64,000 nt of DNA, taken from the NCBI GenBank assembly GCA_035342915.1, contig DAOQYB010000012.1, positions 1,479 through 65,478 of the forward strand, given 5' to 3'. Source of the DNA: Anaerolineaceae bacterium (GTDB lineage Bacteria; Chloroflexota; Anaerolineae; Anaerolineales; Anaerolineaceae). The notes beneath the pieces were generated by a model that saw only the letters and a list, made by a program, of their open reading frames with translations, was not told the origin of the DNA and did no database searches. A program made the translations under genes and the position numbers. Position 1 is the first letter of the stretch; each line of letters opens with the position of its first letter. Of this stretch, positions 1,202-42,628 are shown in pieces.

Positions 1202-4200
1202 ATGAAGCGTCGTGCGCTCATCATAATACTGGCAATCTTCGGTTTTCTCCTGCTGGCCGAGATCGTGTTATTCCTGGTTTTCTATTTCCGCGCGCCAAAG
1301 ATCGCCGACCAGATCGAACCAGGCTCGCACGCCGTGCATGTGAGCCTCTACGCTCCCGCCGGACCCGCGTGGCCGTTGAATTCCCACATTCCCCTCAGCC
1401 TGCAGGTCGAAAGCAGCAACCCCATTCAAAAAGTCGAACTTTACATCAACAATACGCTGTTTGAAACCCGCTCCCTGCCCCCCGAAACTGCGTTAACCTC
1501 TTACCTTGAAACCTGGCACTGGCAGCCCGGCGCGAGCGGTCAGTTCATCCTCATCGCCCATGCCACTGACAGCAGCGGCTTCACCGGGATCTCGCAACCC
1601 CTGGTTCTCAAGGCATCGGCCGCTGCTGCCAGTCTCTCGCCGGTCGAAGCGCAGCCGGGGCAGACGCTCACGAGGCTCGCTGAAGCGCTTGCGCTGCCCC
1701 TGGATTCTTTGCAGGCTGCAAACCCGGGCATCACCGATCCGGCGGCAGTGATTCCGGAGGGTGAGACCGTCTACTCCCCCAACCCCCCCGGGCAGGTTAC
1801 CAATCCTCACATCATCCCGGGATACACCATCCCGGAACAGGAACTGTCGATTTTTCCCGAATTGAGCACGGCACCGGGGCAGTTGATCGAGCTCATCGAT
1901 CCGGCTTTTGAAGCCCTTGAAGACGAAGACAGCGACCCCGGCCTGCAATGGACGCAACTGGAAAACTTCAGGTACTGGCTTTTCCAGCAGTTCACCAAAC
2001 CCGGTCCCGTTGACCTGCAGGCAGTGCCGGGTGGAGAAGGTCAACCCGCTGCCGGAGATGACACGCCGTCTCCCGGAGCCCTTCACCCGCCGCCCGCCCC
2101 CATGACCAAAGCGGAATTTTCGGGGTGTGATGTGAAGGTCACCCTGATGAATGTTGCCTCTTACTATGATCCCATAGACCCGCTGGCGATCGACCAGCAT
2201 GAAGACGGCTTCTTCATATACAGGTCACGGGATGGCAGCAAGTTTGAGCGCGTGGCCACCTGGACCAAGATCAAGGATTTTAAGGATGTCGACGCGTTCT
2301 CTCAGACCGGTTATGCGGACAACAAGCAATATGGCCTGGTCACGTATTACATCTCGGCTTTCAACGCCAGCGCAGAAGTTCCGGGCAGTCCTATCTCCAT
2401 CCCGCTGGACGCCACGAACTGTAAAAAACCATCAAGAGCCGGGGGGCTCTCTCCGTTTACAGAAACACACCTGGATGATGACGGCAACCTCGTGCTGCCC
2501 TTCTCGCTAGACCTCGCGTACTTCTACATCCAACAGGTGAGCGGGGAGAGCAAAACCCAGGCGTGGCGCGTGCCGGAGGGCAGCCGCACCTTCCTGCCTG
2601 AATCAGGTGTCAAGCTGAACCTGTACAATTACCTGGATTCGGTCGCCGACCTGCGCATGGCGCCTGACCTTGAACTTGAAATGGACCTGTGGGGATGGTC
2701 TGGAGGCACGCTCATCCACGCCGGCGCCTATCATCTCTCACTGCACCGCTCGATCCTTTTGATATGTTCTGTTGAAGGCGCTGGCGGCTGCACCGGCGGC
2801 GGAGGTGGTCAATGGCTGCCGGAAATCACGCTTTCAACCAGCAAAGCGGTCAGCGAGCAGGCTTACGAGATCATGTGGCAGGCCTCATCACTCTCACCGG
2901 TCAAAGATGTATGTCTGCAGCTGGCGCAGAATCCTTACATCAAAGACGACTGGTGGCAGGGTATCAGTCTTCCCATCAACTCCTTCTGCATGGACGTAAA
3001 GAAAGGGGGGAATTCCGGCGTTTATTTGTACGAGCTTGGAAAAATTCTCTATCCCCCGGGCGCGAAAAACGCCGGCAAGTGGGGAGTGGGGATGGACGAA
3101 ATTATGGATTTCTCCAGCAACTGGTTTCAGTACGATGTCAGTATTAGCCAGCCTTTTACCCTCTTCATGCGGGTTTATCCGCGGCACGAAACGTCTGGAT
3201 TCAACCGTTATGCCAATATCGGGGTGATGCATTATCTCACCGAAGCCCTGCCCTCAGACCTGCCCCCCCTCGCTTCGCCCTATTCAAGCATGTATGAGAT
3301 CGACATCCTGGAGGAAACCTACGTGCCGCCGAATTTCGCCGTCATGGCGGATTGGGGCTGCGTGAAGATTGAAGAGGACCCGACCGGTCACTATCAACCC
3401 GGAGAGACAGTCTGCCCGCCGTTGATCACCACCCCAAATGACGACTGTGCCGGCAAGAACACGGCGCACTGTCTGCTGGATTTTGCCTACGACACCGCGA
3501 TGGACGCTTATGATCAGATGCTCTGGGTGTGGGACATTTGGAAAACAGAAGTCGCCAAGTGGCTCTCCGCCACGCTGGGACCCTGGTGTTATAACTCACA
3601 GGAGTGCCGCGACCTCAACAAGAAAGCGCTGGAGTACATCATCCAGTACTACACCGGCATCCCGGCCAACCCGCCGTCATCAGATGAACTGATCGCGGAA
3701 TCAGCAGCGGAATGGATCGTGCAATCCGCCATCGAGCTGGAAAAGTACTACACCGAACAGGATGTCTCCGCGATCGAAGCCCTGTGCGAGATCGAAAAAT
3801 GCGAAGAGAAGATCGCGGAAAAATTAAAAGAAGAATTGAAATCGCAGCGGTCACAGGCCAGCCAGCCCGCCTGCACATCTTCTTACCAGGCGTACTTCAT
3901 GGGCAAAGAACCCATGTGCCTGGATCCCTCCATCGTCGTCCATCCCGCGCCCGGCGGAGGCAACTTCCCCGCCATGGTGGGGGTAAGGGTCACGCGCAAG
4001 GTTGATCTTGCCAGCGTAGGGGTCAAGAAGGAGGACCTGGATCAATACCTGCTGGACATCGCTGTTACAACACAAAACACCTACAACAATGACGCCATAA
4101 ACGGTCCGCTCATTTACCAGGCGCGCTTGAAGATCCCCTGGATCGAACCGGGTGAATCCTTCGTATTGAGCACCGCCCTGCTGCCCTGCTCTTACGAGCT

Positions 4201-4405
4201 TAACCTGCCCGGCTGCAGCGGCGGGGTGAACTACTACGGCTTCGAGCCGCTTTACTTTGGGGGAGCCTCGCAAATGAAAGCCCTGGAGATGTGTTACAGC
4301 CCCGGCAGTTCGTGGGAGTGGGTGCCGTGCACCGGGGGCGGCAGCGATACCTGGAACTTCACCAATCCGCCTGACAAAACGACACTTGAAGTGGGGCAGC
4401 CATGA
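1202..4405 (+). CDS. large membrane-anchored surface protein (Ig-like domain, LysM-like segment, Cys-rich C-terminal region); function unknown
   Basis: 1067-aa ORF with RBS GGGAGGATAAT before the ATG. N-terminal TM helix ALIIILAIFGFLLLAEIVLFLVFYF. LysM-like QPGQTLTRLAEALALPLDSLQAANPGI. Codon usage matches neighbouring genes. Confidence 0.8.
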   Translation: MKRRALIIILAIFGFLLLAEIVLFLVFYFRAPKIADQIEPGSHAVHVSLYAPAGPAWPLNSHIPLSLQVESSNPIQKVELYINNTLFETRSLPPETALTSYLETWHWQPGASGQFILIAHATDSSGFTGISQPLVLKASAAAASLSPVEAQPGQTLTRLAEALALPLDSLQAANPGITDPAAVIPEGETVYSPNPPGQVTNPHIIPGYTIPEQELSIFPELSTAPGQLIELIDPAFEALEDEDSDPGLQWTQLENFRYWLFQQFTKPGPVDLQAVPGGEGQPAAGDDTPSPGALHPPPAPMTKAEFSGCDVKVTLMNVASYYDPIDPLAIDQHEDGFFIYRSRDGSKFERVATWTKIKDFKDVDAFSQTGYADNKQYGLVTYYISAFNASAEVPGSPISIPLDATNCKKPSRAGGLSPFTETHLDDDGNLVLPFSLDLAYFYIQQVSGESKTQAWRVPEGSRTFLPESGVKLNLYNYLDSVADLRMAPDLELEMDLWGWSGGTLIHAGAYHLSLHRSILLICSVEGAGGCTGGGGGQWLPEITLSTSKAVSEQAYEIMWQASSLSPVKDVCLQLAQNPYIKDDWWQGISLPINSFCMDVKKGGNSGVYLYELGKILYPPGAKNAGKWGVGMDEIMDFSSNWFQYDVSISQPFTLFMRVYPRHETSGFNRYANIGVMHYLTEALPSDLPPLASPYSSMYEIDILEETYVPPNFAVMADWGCVKIEEDPTGHYQPGETVCPPLITTPNDDCAGKNTAHCLLDFAYDTAMDAYDQMLWVWDIWKTEVAKWLSATLGPWCYNSQECRDLNKKALEYIIQYYTGIPANPPSSDELIAESAAEWIVQSAIELEKYYTEQDVSAIEALCEIEKCEEKIAEKLKEELKSQRSQASQPACTSSYQAYFMGKEPMCLDPSIVVHPAPGGGNFPAMVGVRVTRKVDLASVGVKKEDLDQYLLDIAVTTQNTYNNDAINGPLIYQARLKIPWIEPGESFVLSTALLPCSYELNLPGCSGGVNYYGFEPLYFGGASQMKALEMCYSPGSSWEWVPCTGGGSDTWNFTNPPDKTTLEVGQP

Positions 4406-5310
4406 AAACCACCCGATACCTTGCCTGTTTACTCTGCTTTATCTTTTTGCTTTCAGCCTGTGAAGAAACCTCCACGCTGCCCGCGCCCGGGGTGCGCCTG
4501 CAAACCTGGATCGACGCGCCGCTGGACGGCATGCGCCTGCCCCTCGCCCCCTACAAGGTGGTTTTTCATATCACCGATGCCGGCAGCGTCAGCGCGGGCG
4601 AATTGATCATCAATGGCAGTTCTGCCACCGTGCTGCCCAACCCTCAACCGGGAACCAACTACGCGGGATTGATGTACGACTGGAACCCGCCGGGATACGG
4701 TGTGTACACCCTCCAGGCGCGCGCGCAGGGAGCGGACGGCGCCTGGGGCGATTTTGCCCAGGTCGTGGTCGAGATCCTGGAACCGACGGCCACGCTGACC
4801 CCGACGGATGTGAACACCCCCACCCATACCCCGACCCTCACCCCCACCGCCACCTTTACCGTAACGGTCACCCTCACCCCCACCGCCACCCTCACCCGTA
4901 CACCAACGGTCACCCCGGTTCCTGGTCCGTCGAAGATCAGCTTCCAGAATCCTCACCCGAATACCTCCCAGATCTACTTCAGGGGCAACGGCTGCGGGCG
5001 TAAAGAGGTGGATTTCTATGTCACCATTCCCGAGTCAGCCAAAGCCTCACAGGTCACGGTGCATTACCGCCTGCTTGATCGCAATAACGGCCGCCATGTT
5101 ACGAACTGGTACACAAAATTGATGTACCATCCGTCCGGCAGCACTGTTGATTGGCTGGAATCGGTCAACCCGGAAGTGGAGATTCCCGGCGTAGCAGATT
5201 TTCCTCAGGCTGAAATTCAGTACTATTTCTCGGCCGTGAACGCGTTGAGCGCTTCAGAAGTGAGCTCGGATATTTACGATAACATCCTGCTGGATATCTG
5301 CAATCGTTAG
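4402..5310 (+). CDS. lipoprotein with Ig-like domain and Thr/Pro-rich linker; function unknown
   Basis: ATGA start/stop overlap with the upstream gene. Lipobox FLLSAC. N-terminal domain resembles the Ig-like domain of the 1202 gene. Linker TPTDVNTPTHTPTLTPTATFTVTVTLTPTATLTRTPTVTP. Confidence 0.8.
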   Translation: MKTTRYLACLLCFIFLLSACEETSTLPAPGVRLQTWIDAPLDGMRLPLAPYKVVFHITDAGSVSAGELIINGSSATVLPNPQPGTNYAGLMYDWNPPGYGVYTLQARAQGADGAWGDFAQVVVEILEPTATLTPTDVNTPTHTPTLTPTATFTVTVTLTPTATLTRTPTVTPVPGPSKISFQNPHPNTSQIYFRGNGCGRKEVDFYVTIPESAKASQVTVHYRLLDRNNGRHVTNWYTKLMYHPSGSTVDWLESVNPEVEIPGVADFPQAEIQYYFSAVNALSASEVSSDIYDNILLDICNR

Positions 5311-17183: not shown

Positions 17184-18737
17184 TCACGGCACGGTGACCG
17201 CCACGCTCCCAAGGATACTGGAATAGGCCGTGCAGATCACACCGTCGTATTTGCATAACCTGAAGTTGTAGGTGCCGGTTGCCAGCCCTGTGACCGTGTA
17301 AGCGTACAACGCTTTGTCGATCACGCCCGGCTTCACATCGTCTGGGTAGGAGGGGTCGTCCAGCAGGTCCCACAGCAGCAGGTAGCCCGCGGAGGGTTCG
17401 TTCCCCTGTTCTATCACCCAGGTCAGTTCCACCTCACCGGGGTTCGTGTTGGCAGCGCCTCTTAGCGTGAAGCCGAACTCGGGGTAAGGCTCAGCGAAAG
17501 TGAATTGCTTTACCGCTGAATACACGGTGCAGGTGCCGGCCGCCACCTTGCACACCCTGAAGTAGTAAAGCGTGTTGGGCATGCCGGTCACATCCGCCTG
17601 GGTGGCGCCTTGAGGCGCGTCAACGAACATATCGCTGATTGTGGGTTCGTCATTGCTCGCGGAGTACAGTACCTTAAAGCCCTCAGGGAAACTGCCGCTG
17701 GCGCCCCAGTAAATGGTGGCCGTTCCCGGCGCGCTGCCGTCTACAATGGAGGAGACGAGGATGGTGGAATTATCCACCACGGCGGTGGGTTCAGGCACCT
17801 TGGTGGGCAGCGGCTTGGCTGCCGTGCCGGGGTAAGTGTGTTCGAAGGAAGGCGTGTACGCGTCGCAGCCGCTGCCGTTGAACTTGCAGATGCGGTAATA
17901 GTAGGTGGTACCCGCCTTGCCGTCAACATAGGCTTCGCGCTCATCGCCGTCGGAGATCGAGAAGTAACTGTCGGAGCCGTATTTCGGGTTTTCGTTGCCG
18001 GTGGAGTAATAGATGCGGAAGCCGCGCGAGGGATTGCTGTCAGAGGTCCAGAGCATGCGCGCCTTCAGCCCGCCGGCGTTGGTGATGCTGGTAATGGCGA
18101 ACTTGGGGGCCGCGGTGGCTGATGTCCCACCGCCGCCTCCCCCGCCGCCGGATACGATCGGGGTTAACGCCCTGGCAGTGGCGGTGCGGTTGGGTGTGGG
18201 TGTGGGCGCGTAACGCCTGAAGTTAAAGAAAGCCGTGTTGCTGTACACATCACAACCCGCGCCCGTGAAGCGGCAGACGCGCACGATGTACACGTAACCC
18301 GGCTCCCCGGCAAACATCGCCGCGCGCGCATACGGGTCACTGGTGTACGATCCGTCATCCTGCGGTGAGACCGGCCGGCGTTCCTCACGCGTCCAGACCA
18401 CGTTGAACCCGGAGGGGAAACTGCCGATGCCATCCCAATTGACAATGGCCTGCCCGGGACCGATCTGCTGGATGGCGGTGATGTTGATGCGCGCATCCGG
18501 TGTGGGCTCAGGCGGGGTGCCCGGCGCGGGGGGCGGGGGCAGCGGGGTCCCGGTCGGCAGCGCAGCCGCCGGCTGCTCGGGCAGCCCCGGCTGCGTCTGC
18601 TGCGCCTGCAGCGCTGATTGGGTGAGAATAACAGCCAGTTTCTCCTTCACCAGCTCCTGGCTGGTTGGCTGTTCGGCGCAGCCAGAGAGGATGAGAGAAA
18701 GCGTCAGAACAATCGCCATCAGGATTTTAATACGCAT
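17184..18737 (-). CDS. lipoprotein with four FN3-like repeat modules each ending in a conserved Cys pair; function unknown
   Basis: Start MRIKILMAIVLTLSLILSGC at 18737 (lipobox, GGTGGAGG RBS). Four modules of about 105 aa end in YIVRVCRFTGAGCDVYS, YYYRICKFNGSGCDAYT, YYFRVCKVAAGTCTVYS and YNFRLCKYDGVICTAYS. Confidence 0.8.
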   Translation of the reverse strand: MRIKILMAIVLTLSLILSGCAEQPTSQELVKEKLAVILTQSALQAQQTQPGLPEQPAAALPTGTPLPPPPAPGTPPEPTPDARINITAIQQIGPGQAIVNWDGIGSFPSGFNVVWTREERRPVSPQDDGSYTSDPYARAAMFAGEPGYVYIVRVCRFTGAGCDVYSNTAFFNFRRYAPTPTPNRTATARALTPIVSGGGGGGGGTSATAAPKFAITSITNAGGLKARMLWTSDSNPSRGFRIYYSTGNENPKYGSDSYFSISDGDEREAYVDGKAGTTYYYRICKFNGSGCDAYTPSFEHTYPGTAAKPLPTKVPEPTAVVDNSTILVSSIVDGSAPGTATIYWGASGSFPEGFKVLYSASNDEPTISDMFVDAPQGATQADVTGMPNTLYYFRVCKVAAGTCTVYSAVKQFTFAEPYPEFGFTLRGAANTNPGEVELTWVIEQGNEPSAGYLLLWDLLDDPSYPDDVKPGVIDKALYAYTVTGLATGTYNFRLCKYDGVICTAYSSILGSVAVTVP

Positions 18738-30066: not shown

Positions 30067-30444
30067 GTGGGAATAATCGAATTATTCAACAAACATCAAT
30101 ATATCAATCTCGAAACCTACCGCAAAAATGGCCAGGGGGTTCGCACACCAGTGTGGTTCGTGGTGCATGAAGGAGAACTGTGTTTTACCACCGAAGCCTC
30201 CTCGGGCAAGGTCAAACGCCTGCGCCGCAATCCGGCGGTCAAAGCCGCCCCCTGCACCGCCAGCGGCGATCTGCTGGGAGAGTGGCATACGGCGCGCGCG
30301 CGCTTCTTGAGCGCGGATGAGATCGTCGTGGTAAGGAAGGTATACGCCCGCAAATACGGGGTGATGAAGCTGCTCTTTGACCTGCTGGGGATGTTCAGAA
30401 AAAAACAGCGCCTCTACATCGCCCTGGCGCTTGATTCGGAATGA
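30067..30444 (+). CDS. PPOX class F420-dependent / pyridoxamine 5'-phosphate oxidase-like family protein
   Basis: YINLETYRKNGQGVRTPVWFVVHEGELCFTTEASSGKVKRLRRNPAV pattern. GTG start. Confidence 0.75.
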   Translation: MGIIELFNKHQYINLETYRKNGQGVRTPVWFVVHEGELCFTTEASSGKVKRLRRNPAVKAAPCTASGDLLGEWHTARARFLSADEIVVVRKVYARKYGVMKLLFDLLGMFRKKQRLYIALALDSE

Positions 30445-30481
30445 GCGCTACAGCCATCAGGTTAAAAGTGTCATCCCTGGA

Positions 30482-30705
30482 TGCAACCCCTGCCTTCCCG
30501 CCCGAATGCAATTTCCGCCTGTTCGCCTGAATGCAGATATTGCCTATTGGCAAGCGTGCAAAATCTGCCTTTTGGCGAGAAGAACAAAAATGCACGCCGG
30601 CGGGGATGAATTAACTGCATCAAGGAGGCCTGGGTGCAAGAAATGTCCTTCTACAGAGTGCAGGAAGTGCACCTCTACAGCGTGCAAAAGTTGCACGTGA
30701 TTCTA
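30482..30705. repeat. array of about nine degenerate direct repeats built on (A/G)TGCA(A/G), period 24-25 bp
   Basis: TGCA starts at 30482, 30507, 30532, 30557, 30591, 30616, 30635, 30659 and 30683, giving spacings of 25, 25, 25, 34, 25, 19, 24 and 24. The last three units are clear 24-mers: GTGCAAGAAATGTCCTTCTACAGA, GTGCAGGAAGTGCACCTCTACAGC, GTGCAAAAGTTGCACGTGATTCTA. Confidence 0.75.
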
Positions 30706-30743
30706 TTCACCACTTAATTAATACTTTAAACGACTTAAAGAGC

Positions 30744-31142
30744 TTAACCGCTTTTTTTACGGCGCTGTGGATTGATCAGATCCTCAGGAAATACCAGGTT
30801 CCAATCATAGCGCGGGCTCCTGGATGGTTGTTTGTATTTACCCGGGTCCACCTGTCCATTCTGATAGTCATTGAGAAAACGCGCCAGCGCCAGGGTTGCC
30901 AGCTGGCTGGCCGGCAGGCGCAGATCCTCTGCCAGCAGGCGGATGCCCTCGCGGATGGAAGGCGGAAGATCATAAGTGGCGCGCTGGTCGCGCCTGGATT
31001 GGATCTTGGCGCGTTCACGGGAAATACGTTCTCTTTCGCGGCGCGGGAGTTGGGACTCGGATTGTTTCTGCTGCATCCCGCGCAGCAGGTCCGCCACTGC
31101 CGGGTCGAGCGCGAAACGGCGTTGTCTTTTTTCATCAACCAT
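30744..31142 (-). CDS. ribbon-helix-helix protein, candidate centromere-binding partner of the adjacent ParA (ParG/omega-like, type Ib)
   Basis: 132 aa, 8-nt overlap with the upstream parA. ATYDLPPSIREGIRLLAEDLRLPASQLATLALARFL fits a beta-strand/helix/helix pattern. Basic N-terminal tail. Confidence 0.6.
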   Translation of the reverse strand: MVDEKRQRRFALDPAVADLLRGMQQKQSESQLPRRERERISRERAKIQSRRDQRATYDLPPSIREGIRLLAEDLRLPASQLATLALARFLNDYQNGQVDPGKYKQPSRSPRYDWNLVFPEDLINPQRRKKSG

Positions 31143-31905
31143 CGATCACCTCCAGCATGCGGCCAAGCACCTGGCGGTATCCGCCGAGGCGCTGACGGCC
31201 ATCTCTAAATCCTTCGATTGAAGTGGAATTGGGCGAATACTCCCACAATGTCTGCCCGTATGCCGCTGTTTCACGCACGCGCGTATCCTGCGGCACCGGC
31301 GGCCAGACGTTCGCGCCGAAAACGCGGGTGATCTCTTCAAACTGGATAAGCGTTTCACGCGTGGTGCGATCGAAAAAGGTCGGCAGAATACTGTAACCGC
31401 GGTAAAGGTGACCGTTGCGGCTGATCTCGGCCATGGTGGTGAGGATCTCTTTCACCCCATCCACCGCCAACGCGTCCAGCCGGGTAGGAATCACAACCCA
31501 GTCCGCGGCAATCAAGCCATTGATGTGCAGCACATCCAGCGAAGGCGCCATATCCAGCAAGACCGCGTCATAACCGGAGTTGGTGAGAATGTCACTGAGG
31601 ATGGTCTCGCGAAAATCGGCCAGGGTGATCTGGCGCTTGACCTTTTCCGTCTGCTTATCGCCGGGCACCAGGTCCAGGTTGGGGCGCAGCGGCACCACCA
31701 CCCCGGCCAGCGGTTCATCCAGGCAGATCAGGCGGTAGAGCCCCGGGGATTTTTCCAGGCCGAAGGAAAGCGCCAGGTGCCCCTGCGGATCGAGGTCGAC
31801 GAGCAGGGTGCGTTTATTAAGGCGCGCCAGACCGTCAGCGAGCGTGACCGCAGTGGTGGTCTTGCCGACACCGCCTTTCTGATTGGCAAAAGCAAAGATC
31901 ATCAA
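31135..31905 (-). CDS. parA: ParA/Soj-family partition ATPase (short form)
   Basis: Deviant Walker A FANQKGGVGKTTTAV, LLVDLDPQG, DAVLLDMAPS. Confidence 0.9.
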   Translation of the reverse strand: MMIFAFANQKGGVGKTTTAVTLADGLARLNKRTLLVDLDPQGHLALSFGLEKSPGLYRLICLDEPLAGVVVPLRPNLDLVPGDKQTEKVKRQITLADFRETILSDILTNSGYDAVLLDMAPSLDVLHINGLIAADWVVIPTRLDALAVDGVKEILTTMAEISRNGHLYRGYSILPTFFDRTTRETLIQFEEITRVFGANVWPPVPQDTRVRETAAYGQTLWEYSPNSTSIEGFRDGRQRLGGYRQVLGRMLEVIDG

Positions 31906-31967
31906 AAGAGAAAACTCCTGGCTCAGATGTTATCAGTGAACGAAGAAACCGCCCACAAATAAAAAAT

Positions 31968-32058
31968 AAGGGTCGCCCCATAAAATTATAAAGGGTCACC
32001 CCTTGAAAATCAAGGGTCGCCCCTGGAAAAGAGATGACCGCGGAAAAAGGGTCACCCC
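31968..32058. repeat. four 12-bp direct repeats AAGGGTC(G/A)CCCC (iteron/centromere-like)
   Basis: Copies at 31968-31979 (G), 31991-32002 (A), 32012-32023 (G) and 32047-32058 (A). The A-type copies are followed by TTGA and contain the palindrome GGGTCACCC. They lie 63-153 bp upstream of the parA start at 31905. Confidence 0.75.
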
Positions 32059-32151
32059 TTGATGCCCTTCAAGGCTTCCTGGAAACGGAAAATGGCGTTG
32101 AACGCGTAAAGCCCCGTGTGGCGGAAAATATGGAAAAAGGAGAAGGAAAAA

Positions 32152-32207
32152 GTGTAACCGCGGTAACACATTGACTAAAAAAAGTGTAACCATGGTTACA
32201 CTTTTTT
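32152..32207. promoter_or_regulatory. parS-like palindromes GTGTAACCGCGGTAACAC and AAAAAAGTGTAACCATGGTTACACTTTTTT
   Basis: 32152-32169 is a near-palindrome. 32184-32201 is a perfect 18-bp palindrome, extended to a perfect 30-bp palindrome (32178-32207) by A6/T6 flanks. They lie 18-73 bp downstream of the parB stop. The second could alternatively be a bidirectional terminator. Confidence 0.5.
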
Positions 32208-32224
32208 AGAACAATTAACCGGTG

Positions 32225-33370
32225 CTAACGGGTACGGTCAAGGCGCGCGCGGATCAACCTGGACAGTTCCTCGAGCAGGTTCAGGGATTGAGCTCCCAAC
32301 CCTCTCACCACCATGGTGTTGGCGATCTCATCCAGCGCCCGGTCCTGGCCAGTACGGTCAAGCTCATTGAGGGTTTGTACGAAGCGCCGCAGCGAGCGCG
32401 CGGCCTGGCGACCGGGTTCGGGGAGGATGGGCGCGGCGGGGCGCCGGGGAGGTTCTGCGCCGGCCCTGGCGGGCGCGGCGATCTCGGCGATCTCTTCGGA
32501 GGTAAGCTGATTTTGAATGCTCAACCTGACCATACGCTCCCACTGGTCACGCGGCGAAGACAGGATCTCGCGCAGGACGCGTTCCGATAGGCGGTAGCGA
32601 TCCGCCAGGTCCAGCTGGCTGGTAGGCAGCTGCAGGATGTTGAGCAGCTGCACCATGCGCGGGCGGGTGAGCTGCATCACGGGGGTGATCTTCTCCCACA
32701 AACCCGCGGGCATGCGCTGGGTGCGCGCGATGCGGAAGTAATCGTAGTCATCCGCCAGGTCCTTATCCGGGTGGATACCCATTTCAGCCAGGATGAGGGC
32801 TGCCACTTCGCAGGCCTGTTCCACCGAGGATGGGGGTTCGGCGTGACGGTTCTCCAACACCTGGCGCTGGCGGGTGGGATGTTCCACCACCTCAACGCGC
32901 AGCAGCGGTTCATCTTCGGCACCGGAAGAGGCGTACTGCAGGCAGGCCGCCCAGTAGCGACGTTCACCGGTCTCGATGATGAACACGTATTCGCCGCCGG
33001 CACCCAATGCCCACTTGCCGGTGATGGATTTTATCTGGCCGTGCTCATCGAAAGACGAGCCCATGGCGAGAAGCTTCTGCACTTCCTGTTCCATGCCGGG
33101 GTCGGTGCGAGAAAGCGCCAGCCATTCCAGCGCCGCCTGGTAGCAGTTGATGCGGCCGCCGTAGAAATCCGCGCGGATCTCGGCGGGAAGCAGGCGCCGC
33201 GGCTGAAACCGGTCGGGAAGCATCTGGCTGGGTTTAAGGCGTTCGATGCGTTCCACCGGCGCGGGCGCCGCATCCGGGGAGTTCACGCGCGCCGGGGGTT
33301 CTATCTTGGGTTTTTTTGAGCCTTTCTTATCCAGGTCTTCAAAGGCGTTAAATCTCTTTTTCGGCGGCAT
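32225..33370 (-). CDS. parB: ParB/Spo0J-family partition protein (ParB N-terminal CTP-binding domain + HTH)
   Basis: LKPSQMLPDRFQPRR (box I), FIIETGERRYWAA (GERRxRA arginine patch), HTH-like MQLTRPRMVQLLNILQLPTSQLDL, and a Pro/Arg-rich linker plus helical C-terminus. Start lies 4 nt after the parA stop. Confidence 0.85.
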   Translation of the reverse strand: MPPKKRFNAFEDLDKKGSKKPKIEPPARVNSPDAAPAPVERIERLKPSQMLPDRFQPRRLLPAEIRADFYGGRINCYQAALEWLALSRTDPGMEQEVQKLLAMGSSFDEHGQIKSITGKWALGAGGEYVFIIETGERRYWAACLQYASSGAEDEPLLRVEVVEHPTRQRQVLENRHAEPPSSVEQACEVAALILAEMGIHPDKDLADDYDYFRIARTQRMPAGLWEKITPVMQLTRPRMVQLLNILQLPTSQLDLADRYRLSERVLREILSSPRDQWERMVRLSIQNQLTSEEIAEIAAPARAGAEPPRRPAAPILPEPGRQAARSLRRFVQTLNELDRTGQDRALDEIANTMVVRGLGAQSLNLLEELSRLIRARLDRTR

Positions 33371-33374
33371 GGGC

Positions 33375-34232
33375 TTATCCTTCCCGCGCGCCTGAGCGGG
33401 CGGCGGTGCGTTTAAGGACGAGGTCGGTTAGTTCAGCGTATTCTCGCGTGGGGCGGGAACTGGATACGATATTCTGGCTGCCGGGATTGCGCGGCGGGCG
33501 GTACGTGAACACGTCCATGTGGCTGGAGTGCGCGTACGCCAGGTCGGAGGATTTGTGGATGGCCGGCAGCAGCAGCTTCTTGTAGCGTTTCTTCATTTCC
33601 TCCAGGATCTCACGGGTTTCACTGCGTTGTTCCTCGCACAGGGTGGGCAGGTAGCCGAATATATTGAGATCCGGTTTGAAATGGGTTTGCACCTGCTCGA
33701 TGGTGCGCTGCAGCTCGATGAGCCCTGAAACGCCCAGGTAGGAGGTTTCTACCGGGATGATGACGTGATCGGCAGCGACCAGCGCGTTGATCAGCAGGTC
33801 GCCGGTGGTGGGGGGCGTATCGATGATGATGTAGGCGTACTCCTGCTGTACAACTGACAGCGCGCGCTGCAGGCGGGTCTCGTTGGCCATCAATACGGGC
33901 AGTTCACGGGCGGCGCGCACCATGGCGGCGCGTTCCGACGGGACGAAGAACAGGTTAGGGTGGAAGTCGCTGCGCTGGATGAGACGTTGAATGGAGGGCG
34001 GAGGGGTTTCGGTGAGCAGCGACGCCAGCGAGACGGAGGGGGTATCCGCGTGCTTTTCAAAAGCCACCGCTAACAGCGCGTGCACCTGGGGATCCATATC
34101 CACCAGCAGTACGCGGCCGCGCTCATCCTCGCGGTCTGAAAGGCGCAGCGCCAGCCCGGCAGCCAGGTTAACCGCGGTGGTCGTCTTGCCGACACCGCCT
34201 TTTTCATTCGCGATCGTGATAGTGATGGCCAT
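33375..34232 (-). CDS. parA: ParA/Soj-family partition ATPase
   Basis: IANEKGGVGKTTTAVNLA, LLVDMDPQ, YIIIDTPP. Confidence 0.9.
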   Translation of the reverse strand: MAITITIANEKGGVGKTTTAVNLAAGLALRLSDREDERGRVLLVDMDPQVHALLAVAFEKHADTPSVSLASLLTETPPPSIQRLIQRSDFHPNLFFVPSERAAMVRAARELPVLMANETRLQRALSVVQQEYAYIIIDTPPTTGDLLINALVAADHVIIPVETSYLGVSGLIELQRTIEQVQTHFKPDLNIFGYLPTLCEEQRSETREILEEMKKRYKKLLLPAIHKSSDLAYAHSSHMDVFTYRPPRNPGSQNIVSSSRPTREYAELTDLVLKRTAARSGAREG

Positions 34233-34280
34233 TTTTCTTGCCCGTCCGTGCGGGTTAAAGCATACCCCGCAAGCAAATTA

Positions 34281-34363
34281 TACACAATTTATTTTTTTCC
34301 ATGTTAGCATAAAATAGTGTAAACTACAACTAATTGCGTTAATTATCTGCGAAATGGTGTAAA
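34281..34363. promoter_or_regulatory. GTGTA(A/T)A half-sites in the AT-rich divergent promoter region
   Basis: AATAGTGTAAACT (GTGTAAA 34317-34323) and AATGGTGTAAAAT (34357-34363) are direct and 40 bp apart. TTATACACAA (34279-34288) is the inverted copy. They share the half-site of the 32152-32207 palindromes. Confidence 0.4.
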
Positions 34364-34429
34364 ATAGCCTAAATCTCTTGATTTCAGCCCGATTTCGTGC
34401 GATAATTGTTGAGATAACGGAGGTTATCC

Positions 34430-35248
34430 ATGGGCGATGTGATGAATGATGATGAATGGCGGCAGGTACGGCTGGACCGGTTGGGGTTAAAGGAAGATCC
34501 TTTCACGCTGTCGGCCGATCCGCGCTACCTGTATCTTGGACCTGAGCACCTGGCGGTTTACCGGCAGGCGCAGGGAGTCATCTCGCGGCGGCGCGGGCTG
34601 GCGCTCATCACCGGGGATATGGGTATGGGTAAGAGTTCCCTCGCCCGGCGGCTGTACGATGTTTACGCCTCGGAGGATATGGTGGATATCTGCTATATCC
34701 ACACCGCGGCTTTCAAATCTGCCATGGACGCGGCGCGCCAGATCTCTGAAACGCTGGGCATGCCGCGGCTGCGCTCCTTCCAGCTGCAGATGGAAGCGCT
34801 GGAAAAGTTCATGGCCGGCGCCTACACCGCCAACCACAACGTGGTGGTGCTGCTGGATGACGCGCAGTTGATGGAACCCGAAGCGCTGGAGGTGCTGCAC
34901 CGCCTTTACAACTTTGATTACGACGCCAAGGTGGCGCAGGTGCTGGCCTTCGGCCAATCGGAGATGTCGGGGCTCTTCGAACTTAACAAGGCGGTGAACT
35001 CGCGCGTTTTCGTGCGCCTGGCACTGCCTCCACTGACCCTTTCCTCAGCGCTGCAGATGGTGCTCTTCCGCCTCAGCGTCGCCGGGCGTTCAACACCGCT
35101 CATCAATGATGATGCTTTCGAGGTGCTGTACGAAAAATCACAGGGCGTGCCGCGCGAGATCATCCGTTTATGCGCGCTTTCGATGGACCAATTGCTGGAA
35201 AGCGACGAATCCATGATCAATCTCGAAATCGCTCGAAAGGTGAACTGA
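34430..35248 (+). CDS. AAA+ ATPase, ExeA/AAA_22 (ORC/TniB-like) type
   Basis: GLKEDPFTLSADPRYLYLGPEHLAVY...LALITGDMGMGKSSLARRL (Walker A), VVVLLDDAQ (Walker B). GGAGG RBS. Confidence 0.8.
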   Translation: MGDVMNDDEWRQVRLDRLGLKEDPFTLSADPRYLYLGPEHLAVYRQAQGVISRRRGLALITGDMGMGKSSLARRLYDVYASEDMVDICYIHTAAFKSAMDAARQISETLGMPRLRSFQLQMEALEKFMAGAYTANHNVVVLLDDAQLMEPEALEVLHRLYNFDYDAKVAQVLAFGQSEMSGLFELNKAVNSRVFVRLALPPLTLSSALQMVLFRLSVAGRSTPLINDDAFEVLYEKSQGVPREIIRLCALSMDQLLESDESMINLEIARKVN

Positions 35249-35250
35249 TT

Positions 35251-35580
35251 ATGGCTGCCATACAGAATCCGAACCGGAATGCCTGGGTACAGCTGTACGA
35301 AGCCCGGCGCATTCCCAGCGAACCCGAGGGGCGCTCTCCGGGCCGGCCGCCGGGCATCGTGCCGCGCCGCAAGGTGGGAATGACGCTTTCTCAGGGGGAG
35401 ATCACTGAACTGGAAAACTGGCGCGAACGCCTTTCGGGGCTGCTGCGGCGCTCCGTTTCAGCCGGCGAAACCATCGGCGTACTGACACGCATCTGCACCA
35501 CGCGTTACGGGCGGCTGCAGGACCCGGAAGGGATCGAGTCCCTCGCACAACTGGTCGAAAAACTGATAGGTGAGGAATGA
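35251..35580 (+). CDS. hypothetical protein (109 aa)
   Basis: ATG 3 nt after the AAA+ stop. Basic, Pro/Arg-rich N-terminal half and helical C-terminal half. No family recognised. Confidence 0.55.
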   Translation: MAAIQNPNRNAWVQLYEARRIPSEPEGRSPGRPPGIVPRRKVGMTLSQGEITELENWRERLSGLLRRSVSAGETIGVLTRICTTRYGRLQDPEGIESLAQLVEKLIGEE

Positions 35581-35664
35581 ATAAATTCTTCCATAAACCC
35601 TCACAATTAATGGTAGAAAAAACCCTTAAGGGTTTACGAAAGTCGTACCTACAGCAAAACGGGC

Positions 35665-35693
35665 TTGATAAAATAGAATATATGTTCTATAAT
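35665..35693 (+). promoter_or_regulatory. sigma70-like promoter TTGATA-N17-TATAAT with embedded palindrome
   Basis: TTGATA (35665-35670), 17-nt spacer, TATAAT (35688-35693). The spacer/-10 region contains ATAGAATATATGTTCTAT, a 16/18 palindrome. Confidence 0.6.
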
Positions 35694-35742
35694 ATTGAAC
35701 ATGAAATTGCGCACGACGCAAAGCCGGTGATCGGATAAATAA

Positions 35743-36633
35743 ATGGATAAAGGGATCAAGGGACAGTCACTCGGGGTGGACAAGCCGGATTACCAGCAGG
35801 CCTGGGAAATAGTGCTTGGAGAGCTGCGCACTGAAATGTCGCGCGCACTTTATGAAACCTGGGTGCAGCCCTTGAAGGCGGTCGGATTCGAAAACGGGAC
35901 CTTTACCGTGGGCGCTTACAACGCTTACGGGCGCGACTGGGTGGAGGAACGCCTGGGGGCGCGCATCACCCGGCTGCTGGAAGGCATGTACGCCGAACCG
36001 GTCAAATTCAATGTGATGGTCGCGAACGGGTTCTACCGCCCGGGGGAGGGGAGCAAACCCATCAAGAAAACCATTCCGCAGAACCTGGCGCAGGATACTG
36101 CGCGTGAAACGGGTGTGAACGAAGCCGAGGAGATTGCCACATCGAAAGACGATGAGCTGGCGGGGTCGGGGCGTTCGCGCAAGGTGATGCTGCAGCGGGC
36201 TTACGGCAGTGAACGCGCCAAGCTCATCCAGCCGGAGCGCGGCATGTTCGTGACCGGTTATCTCTTCAACAACTGGCTGCCGCTGCTGGGGCATTCAGCC
36301 TTCACCATCATCATGGCGGCGCGCGCGATGTGCTACTGGAACCCGATGACCGGTGAACTGCGCAACGTGGTAGAGACGGAGATGGGCGAGCTGGCCGAAC
36401 ACGCGGCGGTTTCGGTGCGCACGGTCAAAGATGTGCTCAACGCCGAACTGGTGCAGCGTTACTTTCTGCGTTACCGTGTACGCCGCGTGATGACCCCCAA
36501 CGGCGTGCGCACCGCCGGCATCTCGATGCAGGTGCGCATGGATGACCCCCTGACCCCGCTTGACCAGGTGAAGACCGGCCTGATGGAAGAGGAGGAGTGG
36601 TACCTGCCGGAGTTTTCGGGCGAAAAGGAATAG
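35743..36633 (+). CDS. DnaA-domain-I-like N-terminus + wHTH-like C-terminus protein (candidate replication initiator/regulator)
   Basis: AWEIVLGELRTEMSRALYETWVQPLKAVGFENGTFTVGAYNAYGRDWVEERLGARITRLL follows the DnaA_N pattern (W..vl..l......f.tWi.pl......l.l.vpn.f..dW). The C-terminal segment ELAEHAAVSVRTVKDVLNAELVQRYF looks like an HTH. Confidence 0.6.
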   Translation: MDKGIKGQSLGVDKPDYQQAWEIVLGELRTEMSRALYETWVQPLKAVGFENGTFTVGAYNAYGRDWVEERLGARITRLLEGMYAEPVKFNVMVANGFYRPGEGSKPIKKTIPQNLAQDTARETGVNEAEEIATSKDDELAGSGRSRKVMLQRAYGSERAKLIQPERGMFVTGYLFNNWLPLLGHSAFTIIMAARAMCYWNPMTGELRNVVETEMGELAEHAAVSVRTVKDVLNAELVQRYFLRYRVRRVMTPNGVRTAGISMQVRMDDPLTPLDQVKTGLMEEEEWYLPEFSGEKE

Positions 36634-36664
36634 CGCAAACCTGAAGGTTTATCAAGGAACTTTT

Positions 36665-36697
36665 ACGAATGCCGCTGAACGAAAGGGCGGCATTCGT
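36665..36697 (+). terminator. hairpin downstream of the 35743 gene (weak terminator candidate)
   Basis: ACGAATGCCG-13 nt-CGGCATTCGT. No clear T-tract. Confidence 0.4.
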
Positions 36698-36821
36698 GCG
36701 ATATTCTTAGAGACAACCGTAGCTTACGCTTAAAAACATATCTCAACTGCTGCGCAGCCCCATCGATCAATCATCGCGTACGCTCTCGTGTTCTGACCCC
36801 CCGGGTTCAAAGGAGGATGCC

Positions 36822-41637: not shown

Positions 41638-42014
41638 AGTAGTTCTAAAGGGTGGGCGTAGCGTACTAAGAGAAATGTTCGATATGAAGGAATCCTTTAT
41701 AGAAAAATTGAAGCGCAGCGAAAAAGAGTTCAGCCAGCCTTCATGGGCTTAGGGGGCCTGGATAGTTATAATTCGCCAGACTTGCGCATATAGCCAGCGC
41801 TGCTGAACACCGCGCCATTGGTGGTGAGTTTCCTGTTCATGAGGATCGGATAAAGTATCTCAAGCGCGGAGTAGTGATCACGGATCGGGGATATGGGGAT
41901 TAGGTACTTAGGAGGTATTTCTTCCTGGTTACCAATTACTTGTTACTGTTTACTATTTTCTATTCGAGATAAAGTAATGTAATAAAATTAATATATATTA
42001 GCAATATAATAAAG

Positions 42015-42296
42015 ATGTATAATAATGATGTAATGAAAAAAGAAAACCTCTACCGCACCCAGGTGCTGCTGGAACCGGCGCAGTACCGCGAACTGACCGC
42101 CCTGGCGGAAAGCGAGGGCATCAGCCTCTCGGCGCTGTTGAGGCGCATCGTGGCGCAGGGGCTTGAGGAGCAGCGCCGGCAGCAGCTGGCGCGCGCCGCG
42201 GCGCAGATGATGGAACTGTATTACAGCGACGGCAGCTTGACGGCTTATTCAGCGCTGGACGGCGAAGACTTCAGCGGCGGCGGAGGGCAGGCGTGA
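42015..42296 (+). CDS. RHH-type antitoxin (MazE/CopG-like)
   Basis: YRTQVLLEPAQYRELTALAESEGISLSALLRRIVAQGL is a ribbon-helix-helix pattern. 4-nt overlap with the downstream toxin gene. Confidence 0.75.
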   Translation: MYNNDVMKKENLYRTQVLLEPAQYRELTALAESEGISLSALLRRIVAQGLEEQRRQQLARAAAQMMELYYSDGSLTAYSALDGEDFSGGGGQA

Positions 42297-42628
42297 ACCG
42301 CGGAGAGGTCTGGCAGCTGGTGTTGGATGACACTGCCGGCCACGGCTTATCAGAGCAGCGGCTGGTGTTGATCCTCTCTTCAGACGCGCTGGCGGTGCTG
42401 CCGCTGCGCCTGGTGGTGCCGCTGGTGGCGTGGCGGGAGGGTTTCGCTTCAACCCCGTGGATGGTGCGTGTTCCGCCCGTGCTCAACAGCGGGCTCACGG
42501 AGGTGATGGCCGCGGACGCGCTGCAGGTGCGTTCTGTTTCCACGGCGCGACTCAAAACGCGCCTGGGCAGCCTGCCGGAGCGGATCACCGGGCAGGTGGC
42601 AAAAGCGGTGGCGGAGATCACCCATTGA
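42293..42628 (+). CDS. mazF: PemK/MazF family type II toxin (mRNA interferase)
   Basis: NRGEVWQLVLD......EQRLVLILSSD....LPLRLVVPLV.......PWMV.V..........V.AADALQVRSVSTARL. Confidence 0.85.
   Translation: MNRGEVWQLVLDDTAGHGLSEQRLVLILSSDALAVLPLRLVVPLVAWREGFASTPWMVRVPPVLNSGLTEVMAADALQVRSVSTARLKTRLGSLPERITGQVAKAVAEITH

Follow-up and report, generated by a model that had tools for sequence, protein, structure and literature searches.

Positions 30.4-36.7 kb of a 64,000-nt stretch of contig DAOQYB010000012.1 from an Anaerolineaceae bacterium (assembly GCA_035342915.1; the whole stretch is called the window below) hold a cluster of seven genes that is probably the active origin-plus-partition module of the replicon carrying the source contig. 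Our preferred reading is that it forms the maintenance core of a large plasmid-type replicon, kept at low copy number and passed on across the whole family Anaerolineaceae, and that this core comprises the origin, an initiator module and two partition systems. An active origin is favoured because the GC skew switches sign at the locus and because all of the cis elements are strictly conserved. The combination of iteron origin, initiator and partition (par) genes is of a known kind; what appears to be undescribed is this type of initiator module, its ParB/parS pair and the spread across an entire family. In the literature we found no description of the cluster, of plasmid initiators with a DnaA domain I, or of strain HRD-7, whose plasmid is used for comparison below.

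All seven open reading frames (ORFs) of the original prediction, which had been made from the sequence alone, are present where it had placed them. The minus strand carries ParA1 (285 aa, 33375-34232, with a KGGVGKT motif) followed by a ParB-like protein (381 aa, 32225-33370) that has QPR and GERR motifs and a predicted ParB/Srx fold, and then ParA2 (256 aa, 31135-31905, with a TTG start) followed by a ribbon-helix-helix (RHH)-like ORF of 132 aa (30744-31142) that overlaps the ParA2 gene by 8 nt; both ParA proteins are short Walker-type partition ATPases. Divergently, the plus strand carries an ExeA/GspA-like ATPase of 272 aa with a Pfam AAA_22 domain (34430-35248, the AAA_22 ATPase), a conserved protein of 109 aa with an AT-hook-like PGRPP motif (35251-35580, orf109), and a 296-aa protein in which a DnaA domain I is joined to a winged-helix-like C-terminus (35743-36633, the DnaA_N protein), which is the candidate initiator. 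The candidate origin, at 30445-30743 on the minus strand, lies directly downstream of the RHH gene. The G+C content of the cluster, 0.56-0.61, is similar to that of the flanks, as had been predicted.

GC skew and conservation of the cluster

A plasmid-type basic replicon with its origin here had been proposed, and the skew data agree with it. In the window the cumulative GC skew is lowest at 30,261, a position that borders the cluster and lies about 200 bp from the repeat array of the candidate origin, with a skew of about -0.10 over 1-22 kb and of about +0.07 from 31 kb on. The module, or a distant version of it, also lies at the skew minima of two closed plasmids of 180-212 kb, which are the only two closed replicons with the module and give the strongest evidence for an origin. 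The first of these, the plasmid of Leptolinea sp. HRD-7 (AP024711.1, circular, 212,187 bp, from PLSDB), has the module at 190,113-197,861, where the proteins match those of the window at 69% (ParA2, annotated as 'Soj'), 64% (RHH), 73% (AAA_22), 50% (orf109) and 53% (DnaA_N). Its skew minimum at 191,076 falls inside the cluster, about 250 bp from the array (191,330-191,590), and its maximum at 79,039 falls about 100 kb away on the opposite side. Such a layout is what bidirectional replication starting in the cluster produces, and the HRD-7 plasmid has no other annotated Rep, relaxase or integrase.

The second closed plasmid, from Chloroflexota ZRK35 (CP069395.1, circular, 179,736 bp, from PLSDB), is more distant. 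Here a ParA and a protein annotated with a ParB N-terminal domain are divergent from a 271-aa protein with a weak AAA_22 match and a 739-aa protein, and the skew minimum at 106,513 lies inside the gene for the latter, with the maximum at 18,286. The ParB homologue is 29-31% identical to our ParB-like protein, and its ParB_N match (3.7e-4) is below the cut-off. For the other two, direct homology to the window proteins had to be rejected, since hhalign gave no significant score for either the 739-aa protein (E=0.084) or the 271-aa protein (E=0.0022). The 739-aa protein does match, at 1e-44 to 1e-15, a set of 700-850-aa proteins with DnaA_N plus the C-terminal module that were found with the profile of the 296-aa family, and through these intermediate sequences it is assigned to the same superfamily as the 296-aa protein. 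Neither closed plasmid has an annotated Rep candidate; PLSDB lists both as 'non-mobilizable' only and shows a replicon type for neither.

The sign switch also appears as a tendency across species. Of 44 related loci with enough flank, 31 have negative skew on the left and 33 have positive skew on the right, with both signs as expected in 23 loci and reversed in 3, counts that are not phylogenetically independent and thus indicative only. When plus-strand genes are taken alone, the right-minus-left difference is +0.07 (positive in 31 of 39), and for minus-strand genes alone it is +0.02, which is not significant.

To assess conservation, one genome per GTDB species was scanned, giving 80 loci that all belong to the Anaerolineaceae/Anaerolineales and include Bellilinea, Leptolinea and Ornatilinea. 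By tblastn over these 80 species, the block of ParA1 and ParB-like genes divergent from AAA_22, orf109 and DnaA_N is found in essentially every locus of sufficient length. The AAA_22 ATPase is the most conserved cluster protein (74-98% identity across species) and is always linked to the DnaA_N protein, which itself varies more (47-89%); ParA1 is 63-93% identical across the 80 species. Most loci also have ParA2 and the RHH protein, which inserted genes at times split off from the rest, and ParA2 is at times missing. Four families of cis elements travel with the genes, namely the iteron array, the AGGGGYGACCCT repeats, the GTGTAACCnnGGTTACAC palindrome and the operator-like promoter motifs. Beyond the cluster the flanks are variable, and are common to close relatives only.

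Putative initiator operon, control regions and candidate origin

The 296-aa protein begins with a genuine DnaA domain I. Pfam DnaA_N (PF11638) matches residues 19-79 with 1.4e-11 (44 bits, cut-off 24.6), and a profile of 22 homologues retrieves the structure of Bacillus subtilis DnaA domain I (4tps) at 2.4e-7. The layout is domain I at 19-93, a variable linker at about 98-145, a C-terminal domain at 145-280 and an acidic tail, EEEEWYLPEFSGEKE. In the family the last ~150 residues are near-invariant and the linker varies, as domain II of DnaA does. The N-terminal 75 residues and the domain-II-like linker are thus shared with DnaA itself (TIGR00362), but domains III and IV are not: neither Bac_DnaA (the AAA+ domain III) nor Bac_DnaA_C (domain IV) is found in the protein, B. 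subtilis DnaA aligns solely at residues 3-118, the length is 296 rather than about 450 aa, and TIGR00362 scores 32 bits against a cut-off of 344. A match to a PHROG 'replication initiation protein' (E=0.005) is limited to domain I, and a weak LacI-type helix-turn-helix (HTH) at 214-250 is seen in 21 of 22 family members. The case for this protein being the initiator is evenly poised. It is the best candidate because it has a DnaA domain I, a constrained C-terminal domain, a promoter of the autoregulated style, and long relatives at the origin of the second plasmid.

Clustering at 90% gives about 780 homologues of the 296-aa protein, all with DnaA_N, and at 50% identity the superfamily comprises 2,641 representatives, of which many are 500-950 aa long. 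These long forms have one or two DnaA_N domains, at either end, one or two C-terminal modules and no other Pfam domain, and they are unannotated. The acidic-aromatic tail EEEEWYLPEFSGEKE (residues 282-296, window 36,589-36,633) is invariant in the 296-aa family, and the ZRK35 739-aa protein has a tail-like EGEDWYF motif at residues ~606-616. By its sequence the tail looks like a docking peptide for a partner, which might be the clamp, the helicase or the AAA_22 ATPase.

The AAA_22 ATPase is matched by Pfam AAA_22 with 1.3e-15 (58.2 bits, cut-off 27), by TIGR03015 with 1.1e-31, which is below the cut-off of that model (110 against 324 bits), and by the MuB-like PHROG_296 with 1.5e-12. The original prediction had called it ORC-like, a label for which we find only an E-value of 0.025 to the Orc1/Cdc6 model TIGR02928 (13 bits against a cut-off of 181), and which we drop. 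With the ExeA/GspA-EpsI and TniB/MuB ATPases it shares the AAA_22 domain above cut-off, an N-terminal 'DPF' followed by Walker A, and a similar size; it differs from them in having no secretion, polysaccharide or transposase partner here and in its score below the TIGR03015 cut-off. Distant AAA_22 relatives on other plasmids occur in polysaccharide or transposon contexts and were set aside as uninformative on replication. For orf109 there is no match in Pfam, PHROG or PDB; its AT-hook-like motif and an RHH-like segment, RRKVGLTLSQGEI, suggest a DNA-binding protein, and it is present in all but a few related loci and on the HRD-7 plasmid. A 53-aa ORF at 35577-35738, between orf109 and the DnaA_N gene, is not conserved and was therefore treated as promoter DNA.

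Two genes are associated with the operon in other lineages. In Ornatilinea and Bellilinea, a gene with a P22_AR_N domain (the N-terminal domain of the phage P22 antirepressor, 1e-15) stands between orf109 and the DnaA_N gene (L057 9067-9903, L093 9149-9979, L100 9093-9936 in our numbering of related loci). The long spacer between these genes was considered as an origin in these genera and was rejected since it encodes this protein. In many species a gene for a LON_substr_bdg (Lon N-terminal-like) protein of about 200-220 aa lies directly after the DnaA_N gene in convergent orientation (L093 11090-11692, L098 10946-11605, L100 10934-11596). It was found by tblastn in 25 loci and also on the HRD-7 plasmid (143,102-143,773), and may be a proteolytic regulator of the initiator.

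The candidate origin at 30445-30743 is an iteron-like array. Reading away from the RHH gene, it consists of AT-rich TTAAGTNGT-type repeats at about 30700-30743, two TGCA-N5-TGCA palindromes at 30659-30695 with degenerate units beyond, and four direct iterons GGCR-N5-TGCA at 30482, 30507, 30532 and 30557, with an exact period of 25 bp. The motif KGCR-N5-YGCA occurs 8 times per 300 bp here where the mean is 0.22, which makes this its densest cluster in the window, and like two of the repeat families described below it exceeds chance. The array is found beside the RHH gene in HRD-7 and in most related loci, with spacing peaks at 24-25 bp and multiples thereof. The region thus has phased repeats and an AT-rich element at a skew minimum, as an iteron-type origin does, and is a candidate for origin firing; for the array itself to be the origin element we see balanced chances.

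Two control regions accompany the plus-strand operon. The divergent region between ParA1 and AAA_22 (34233-34429) has the highest AT content within the cluster (80% at 34276-34335), and contains conserved operator-like motifs, TTAGCATAA or GCGYTAATT, at 34303-34314, 34334-34345 and 34366-34376, as well as an AAA_22 promoter, TTGATT-17-(TG)GATAAT, at 34378-34406. A motif TATTAGCATAA / GCTGATTT is common to this spacer and to the ParA-AAA spacer of ZRK35. The DnaA box TTATNCACA has one perfect copy in the 64 kb, where about 2 are expected by chance. This single copy, TTATACACA at 34278, gives TATAAT when read from the minus strand, is kept in close relatives only, and is likely the -10 element of parA1. 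The control region of the DnaA_N gene (plus strand, 35586-35693) starts with an inverted repeat, TTCTTCCAT-N15-ATGGTAGAA (35586-35618), followed by a palindrome, AAACCCTTAAGGGTTT (35620-35635), and by a plus-strand promoter, TTGATA-17-TATAAT (35665-35693), which matches at 11 of 12 positions and bears out the near-consensus promoter that had been predicted. A TAGAA-N6-TTCTA element (35674-35689) overlaps this promoter. This element and the inverted repeat in the form TTTCTACC-N15-GGTAGAAA are kept in many related loci, and TTTCTACC...GGTAGAAA also occurs in HRD-7. Rfam has no match in the window.

The module is comparable to iteron replicons (RepE/F, pi/R6K, TrfA/RK2, RepA/pPS10) and to Vibrio chromosome 2 (RctB, ParAB2), which have in common with it the phased repeats and AT-rich element, an autoregulated gene for a winged-helix-type protein, par genes and a skew minimum; as for RctB and chromosome 2, the system is kept across a whole bacterial family (PMC5397143, PMC4980987). 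However, the cluster proteins match none of the Rep_3, RepA, TrfA and RctB families, the candidate initiator has a DnaA domain I and shares its operon with an AAA+ ATPase and a small, putatively DNA-binding protein, and the iterons, with a period of 24-25 bp, are not accompanied by DnaA boxes, whereas the classical replicons use host DnaA.

We propose that replication would start at the array of 24-25-bp periodicity and the adjoining AT-rich repeats at 30,445-30,743. The 296-aa protein would bind the iterons through its winged-helix-like C-terminal domain. In DnaA, domain I serves self-association and recruitment of the DnaB helicase, and the domain I of the 296-aa protein could do the same here. 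The co-transcribed AAA_22 ATPase would supply ATP-dependent remodelling, as domain III of DnaA does at oriC; ATPases of the ExeA/EpsI and TniB/MuB kinds work with a DNA- or target-binding partner. The orf109 protein could act as an architectural factor that bends DNA. The module would thus resemble a DnaA whose parts are spread over several polypeptides. In classical iteron plasmids, the helicase is brought in by host DnaA bound to DnaA boxes (PMC4980987). A Rep protein with a domain I of its own could make such boxes dispensable, which fits their absence here.

Partition proteins and their candidate sites

The search with profile models supports two ParA proteins, the AAA_22 ATPase and the DnaA_N protein among the assignments of the original prediction. 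ParA1 matches Pfam AAA_31 with 4.7e-41 (141 bits, cut-off 27) and CbiA with 3.9e-17, and ParA2 matches the same models with 4.7e-38 (131 bits, cut-off 27) and 5.4e-21. Both have the KGGVGKT P-loop, i.e., the deviant Walker A motif of ParA/Soj. The first cassette had been called type Ia, a class whose ParA (P1 ParA, F SopA) has about 390-400 aa and an N-terminal HTH regulatory domain. This assignment does not hold because ParA1 is short, 285 aa; its P-loop starts at residue 10, and with the SopA model NF010259 it reaches 31 bits where 725 are required.

For the ParB-like protein the predicted assignment stands on fold comparison and fails on Pfam. No match to ParB_N (PF02195) is found at E<=0.1, the sole Pfam match being HTH_ParB at E=0.06; NCBIfam gives no match, and a 20-homologue profile finds no ParB in PDB. 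The AlphaFold model has a predicted local distance difference test score (pLDDT) of only 67. Foldseek places it closest to ParB-CDP (6sdk, E=6.4e-5), then 7bnk, 7bm8 and 8qa9, all with probability 1.00, over an E range of 6e-5 to 2.5e-3 that covers Myxococcus xanthus and Caulobacter crescentus ParB and KorB, with sulfiredoxins next. The motifs RFQPRR and ETGERRxWA are invariant among 20 homologues. Because of the Foldseek matches and these invariant motifs we assign it to the ParB/Srx fold, as a very divergent member that is predicted to be of the CTPase type. The cassette is like ParABS systems with a CTPase ParB (Spo0J, KorB) in its short ParA, its ParB/Srx fold plus HTH, its QPR and GERR motifs and 16-18-bp palindromes downstream of parB, but differs in that the ParB-like protein is invisible to ParB_N and to PDB profiles, and in that the palindrome is not the canonical parS, TGTTNCACGTGAAACA, which is absent from the window within 2 mismatches.

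This palindrome, GTGTAACCnnGGTTACAC, is 18 bp long and present in two copies after the ParB-like gene, at 32152-32169 and 32184-32201, where 0.09 copies are expected. It is found in nearly all related loci, in 1-5 copies that mostly lie 20-200 nt past the stop codon of the ParB-like gene, and it is missing from the whole 212-kb HRD-7 plasmid, which is also without a ParB-like gene. ZRK35 has a different palindrome, TTTGCCACGTGGCAAA, in five copies, four of them downstream of parB and one after the AAA gene. We regard GTGTAACCnnGGTTACAC as a candidate parS-like centromere of the ParB-like protein.

The second cassette resembles type Ib systems (ParF/ParG of TP228, ParA/ParB of pB171 par2, delta/omega of pSM19035) in its small ParA, its small RHH-like protein in an overlapping operon, its promoter repeats and a further array beyond, but differs in that the RHH protein is weakly supported by sequence. 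Specifically, RHH_3 matches 8 of 24 orthologues (best E=6.4e-6), and the window sequence itself has no Pfam match; the top PDB match, which is weak (E=0.67), is a CopG RHH protein. The protein is conserved in at least 53 loci and is probably a ParG/CopG-like ribbon-helix-helix partner of ParA2. Upstream of ParA2, four AGGGGYGACCCT repeats at 31967-32062 (minus strand) are interleaved with the parA2 promoter, TTGATT-17-TATAAT at 32013-31985; the form AAGGGTCRCCCCTKGA has 7 matches where 1.9 are expected. Repeats of this type are found together with the promoter upstream of ParA2 in 19 related loci and on the HRD-7 plasmid, where they are retained as AGGGGCGACCCT. They are likely the operator and centromere of the ParA2/RHH system. 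The upstream repeats and the downstream array are unrelated in sequence, so at most one of the two sets belongs to this system.

The pairing of the ParB-like protein with the palindrome, and of ParA2 and RHH with the AGGGGYGACCCT repeats, is supported because sites and proteins co-vary. With ParB and RHH paired to sites of their own, the iteron array and the TAGAA and TTAGC motifs are left for the products of the plus-strand operon. Two segregation systems would then operate, one in which ParA1 and the divergent CTPase-type ParB act on the GTGTAACCnnGGTTACAC sites, and one in which ParA2 and the RHH protein act on the AGGGGYGACCCT repeats and autoregulate the parA2 promoter.

The HRD-7 copy of the module has neither ParA1 nor the ParB-like protein. 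At 192,953-195,354 (L087 12954-15355), just upstream of AAA_22 and thus in the position that these two genes take elsewhere, it encodes a pair of hypothetical proteins, 351 and 449 aa long, that lack a Pfam match as well as a homologue in the 80 loci and could be an alternative segregation or control module. The plasmid also has three copies of a near-perfect hairpin, ACGGCGACCCTnAGGGTCGCCGT, at about 191,607-191,630, 192,563-192,586 and 195,376-195,400. The arms of this hairpin hold the GCGACCCT core of the parA2-operator repeats, and the hairpins might serve as terminators or as additional binding sites of the RHH protein.

Nature of the replicon and rival explanations

Gene content, together with plasmids being the only closed examples, tips us slightly toward an extrachromosomal replicon, a megaplasmid or chromid, rather than the main chromosome. 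No tRNA is found in the window, in the 80 loci (about 1.3 Mb) or on either plasmid, and no rRNA motif in 1.66 Mb. A tblastn search of the window and 86 loci with approximate queries finds no dnaA, dnaN or gyrB in the window, nor within 10 kb of the cluster in any species; the DnaA query is validated by its domain-I matches, and the negatives for DnaN and GyrB are weaker. The cluster had been described as lying among housekeeping genes. Instead, its neighbours are accessory in every annotated example, and the flanks in the window hold transporters, hydrolases, regulators, a PemK toxin-antitoxin pair, peptidases and many unknowns, with no core informational gene and no gene of a mobile element among the ORFs scanned. 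The PemK/RHH_1 pair is at 42,033-42,628, 5.4 kb from the cluster, and the most AT-rich stretch of the window, a 60-mer of 88% AT at 41,981-42,040, lies just upstream of it; addiction modules are typical of low-copy plasmids. Further off, at 1202-5310, are two co-directional ORFs of 1067 and 302 aa without a Pfam match.

The short cluster flanks of other species contain homologues of 27 of the 184 ORFs of the HRD-7 plasmid. Examples are the LON_substr_bdg gene mentioned above and a trio of ArsR-type regulator, Thioredoxin_3 protein and ArsP-type permease; the trio is found by the cluster in distant species (L094 11479-14260, L099 15773-18436) and in HRD-7 (187,184-189,264), which hints at a replicon ancestry that is shared beyond the maintenance core. 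About 6 kb from its cluster, at 204,327-212,040 (L087 24328-32041), the HRD-7 plasmid also has a complete type I-C CRISPR-Cas operon (cas3, cas5, cas8c, cas7, cas4, cas1, cas2).

A number of observations weigh against an active plasmid-type origin as we describe it, and are best considered together. The source contig, which is metagenome-assembled and corresponds to JGI 3300010356 Ga0116237_10000768, is 81.6 kb long and linear as assembled, and contigs of 317 kb, 360 kb, 383 kb and 1,195,881 bp have homologous clusters in their interior. The skew minimum of the window sits in a flat valley at 22-32 kb, the cross-locus counts share the dependence noted above, and the skew of the plasmids resolves the origin to 1-2 kb only, so that the array is inseparable from the remaining intergenic regions. 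In type Ib systems, an array that follows the par operon can be a second centromere, as is parC2 of pB171, and with this resolution being too coarse to separate the two, our array can alternatively be read as a second centromere of ParA2. The HRD-7 copy is equidistant from all 80 loci, so it is possibly a paralogue of a chromosomal system. As for the proteins, the C-terminal half of the candidate initiator (residues 100-296) matches nothing in Pfam, NCBIfam or PDB and no Rep family; the secondary structure of its model (H-H-b-b-H-H-b-b), from a shallow alignment of 22 sequences and with a pLDDT of 48 (<50), suggests a winged-helix-like domain with low confidence. The role of the AAA_22 ATPase is a guess, its nearest families being of the ExeA/EpsI type and transposition helper ATPases. 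Finally, family-wide conservation of centromere and iterons is more typical of chromosomes and chromids than of ordinary plasmids, with Vibrio chromosome 2 as an example of an ancient chromid that shows it (PMC5397143).

In a bolder version, the module belongs to an ancient, vertically inherited second chromosome or chromid, or to the main chromosome, that is fired from a DnaA-box-free iteron origin by a 'split DnaA' and has a non-canonical ParB/parS of its own; in this split DnaA, domain I and the DNA-binding domain would share one polypeptide and the AAA+ engine would be a separate ExeA-like protein. We hold this to be doubtful, if conceivable. It is unlikely that the cluster is the origin of the main chromosome of the Anaerolineaceae, with chromosomal initiation shifted to, or complemented by, an iteron origin free of DnaA boxes and far from dnaA, and with the HRD-7 copy as a diverged paralogue. 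Such an origin would accord with proteins and cis elements that are single-copy per locus over 80 species, with a cluster internal to the largest of the contigs above, with an HRD-7 version that is equally far from all others and lacks ParA1 and ParB-like, and with a skew switch that holds statistically across species. However, the only closed carriers of the module are the 180-212-kb plasmids, flank genes are held in common with that of HRD-7, and neither within 10 kb nor in the 64-kb window is there a tRNA, rRNA, dnaA, dnaN, gyrB or other core gene. Regions of a chromosome close to the origin are usually rich in core genes. A plain chromosomal oriC was rejected for the lack of a DnaA-box cluster, canonical parS, dnaA, dnaN and gyrB; the absence of dnaA, dnaN and a DnaA-box cluster from the window answers a check that had been suggested.

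The original prediction left open whether the locus is the origin of a secondary replicon or an old, domesticated plasmid backbone. Our data favour an active origin, and do not fully separate the two alternatives. We consider it quite improbable that a plasmid backbone was integrated and domesticated, with genes kept for segregation or regulation and a silent origin. Large contigs, a G+C content equal to that of the flanks and the absence of conjugation genes would suit such a history, but the skew of the window changes sign here, a tendency that relatives share, and the array, promoters and operators are all conserved, which is unexpected for a silent origin. Nor do the borders look integrated: synteny, another check that had been suggested, shows no integrases, att sites or att-like direct repeats adjoining the cluster in homologous loci, and the borders differ between species. 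A recent integration was rejected on the same grounds, there being no tRNA, integrase, transposase or att-like border and the borders being variable, in line with the predicted absence of tRNAs from the window and of integrases and transposases from its scanned ORFs. A phage origin was rejected as well, with no relative in IMG/VR and PHROG matches limited to ParA and the MuB-like ATPase.

Very improbable, lastly, is that the plus-strand operon is a nucleoid-organising, transposition-like or defence system near an origin that another element fires, for although the nearest relatives of the AAA_22 ATPase are ExeA/EpsI and TniB/MuB-type ATPases, no cluster protein matches a Rep family and an antirepressor-like P22_AR_N gene lies inside the operon in some lineages, both closed plasmids are without an annotated Rep candidate, DnaA domain I is otherwise tied to initiation, the operon rather than the par genes is what HRD-7 has in common with every locus, and the cluster has no transposase or defence gene.

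If the cluster is the maintenance core of a plasmid-type replicon, it bears on a family that ranks with the most abundant bacterial groups of anaerobic digesters, sediments and activated sludge. To our knowledge, almost nothing is known about replicons of the Anaerolineaceae, and genetic tools for the family are lacking; a minimal replicon of about 6 kb that combines a candidate origin with a candidate initiator and candidate centromeres would be a natural starting point for shuttle vectors. Once the superfamily, with its 2,641 representatives, is recognised, Chloroflexota contigs from plasmids and chromids could be picked out of metagenomes in which Rep-based typing finds nothing. The divergent ParB and its new palindrome would widen the range of CTPase-type ParB/parS pairs, and the fusion of DnaA domain I to a winged-helix-like domain, with a separate AAA+ ATPase, suggests that the host helicase may be recruited without DnaA boxes. 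If it is true, a split-DnaA replicon would be the Chloroflexota counterpart of Vibrio RctB and chromosome 2, and its initiators would form a superfamily whose diverged members number more than 2,600.

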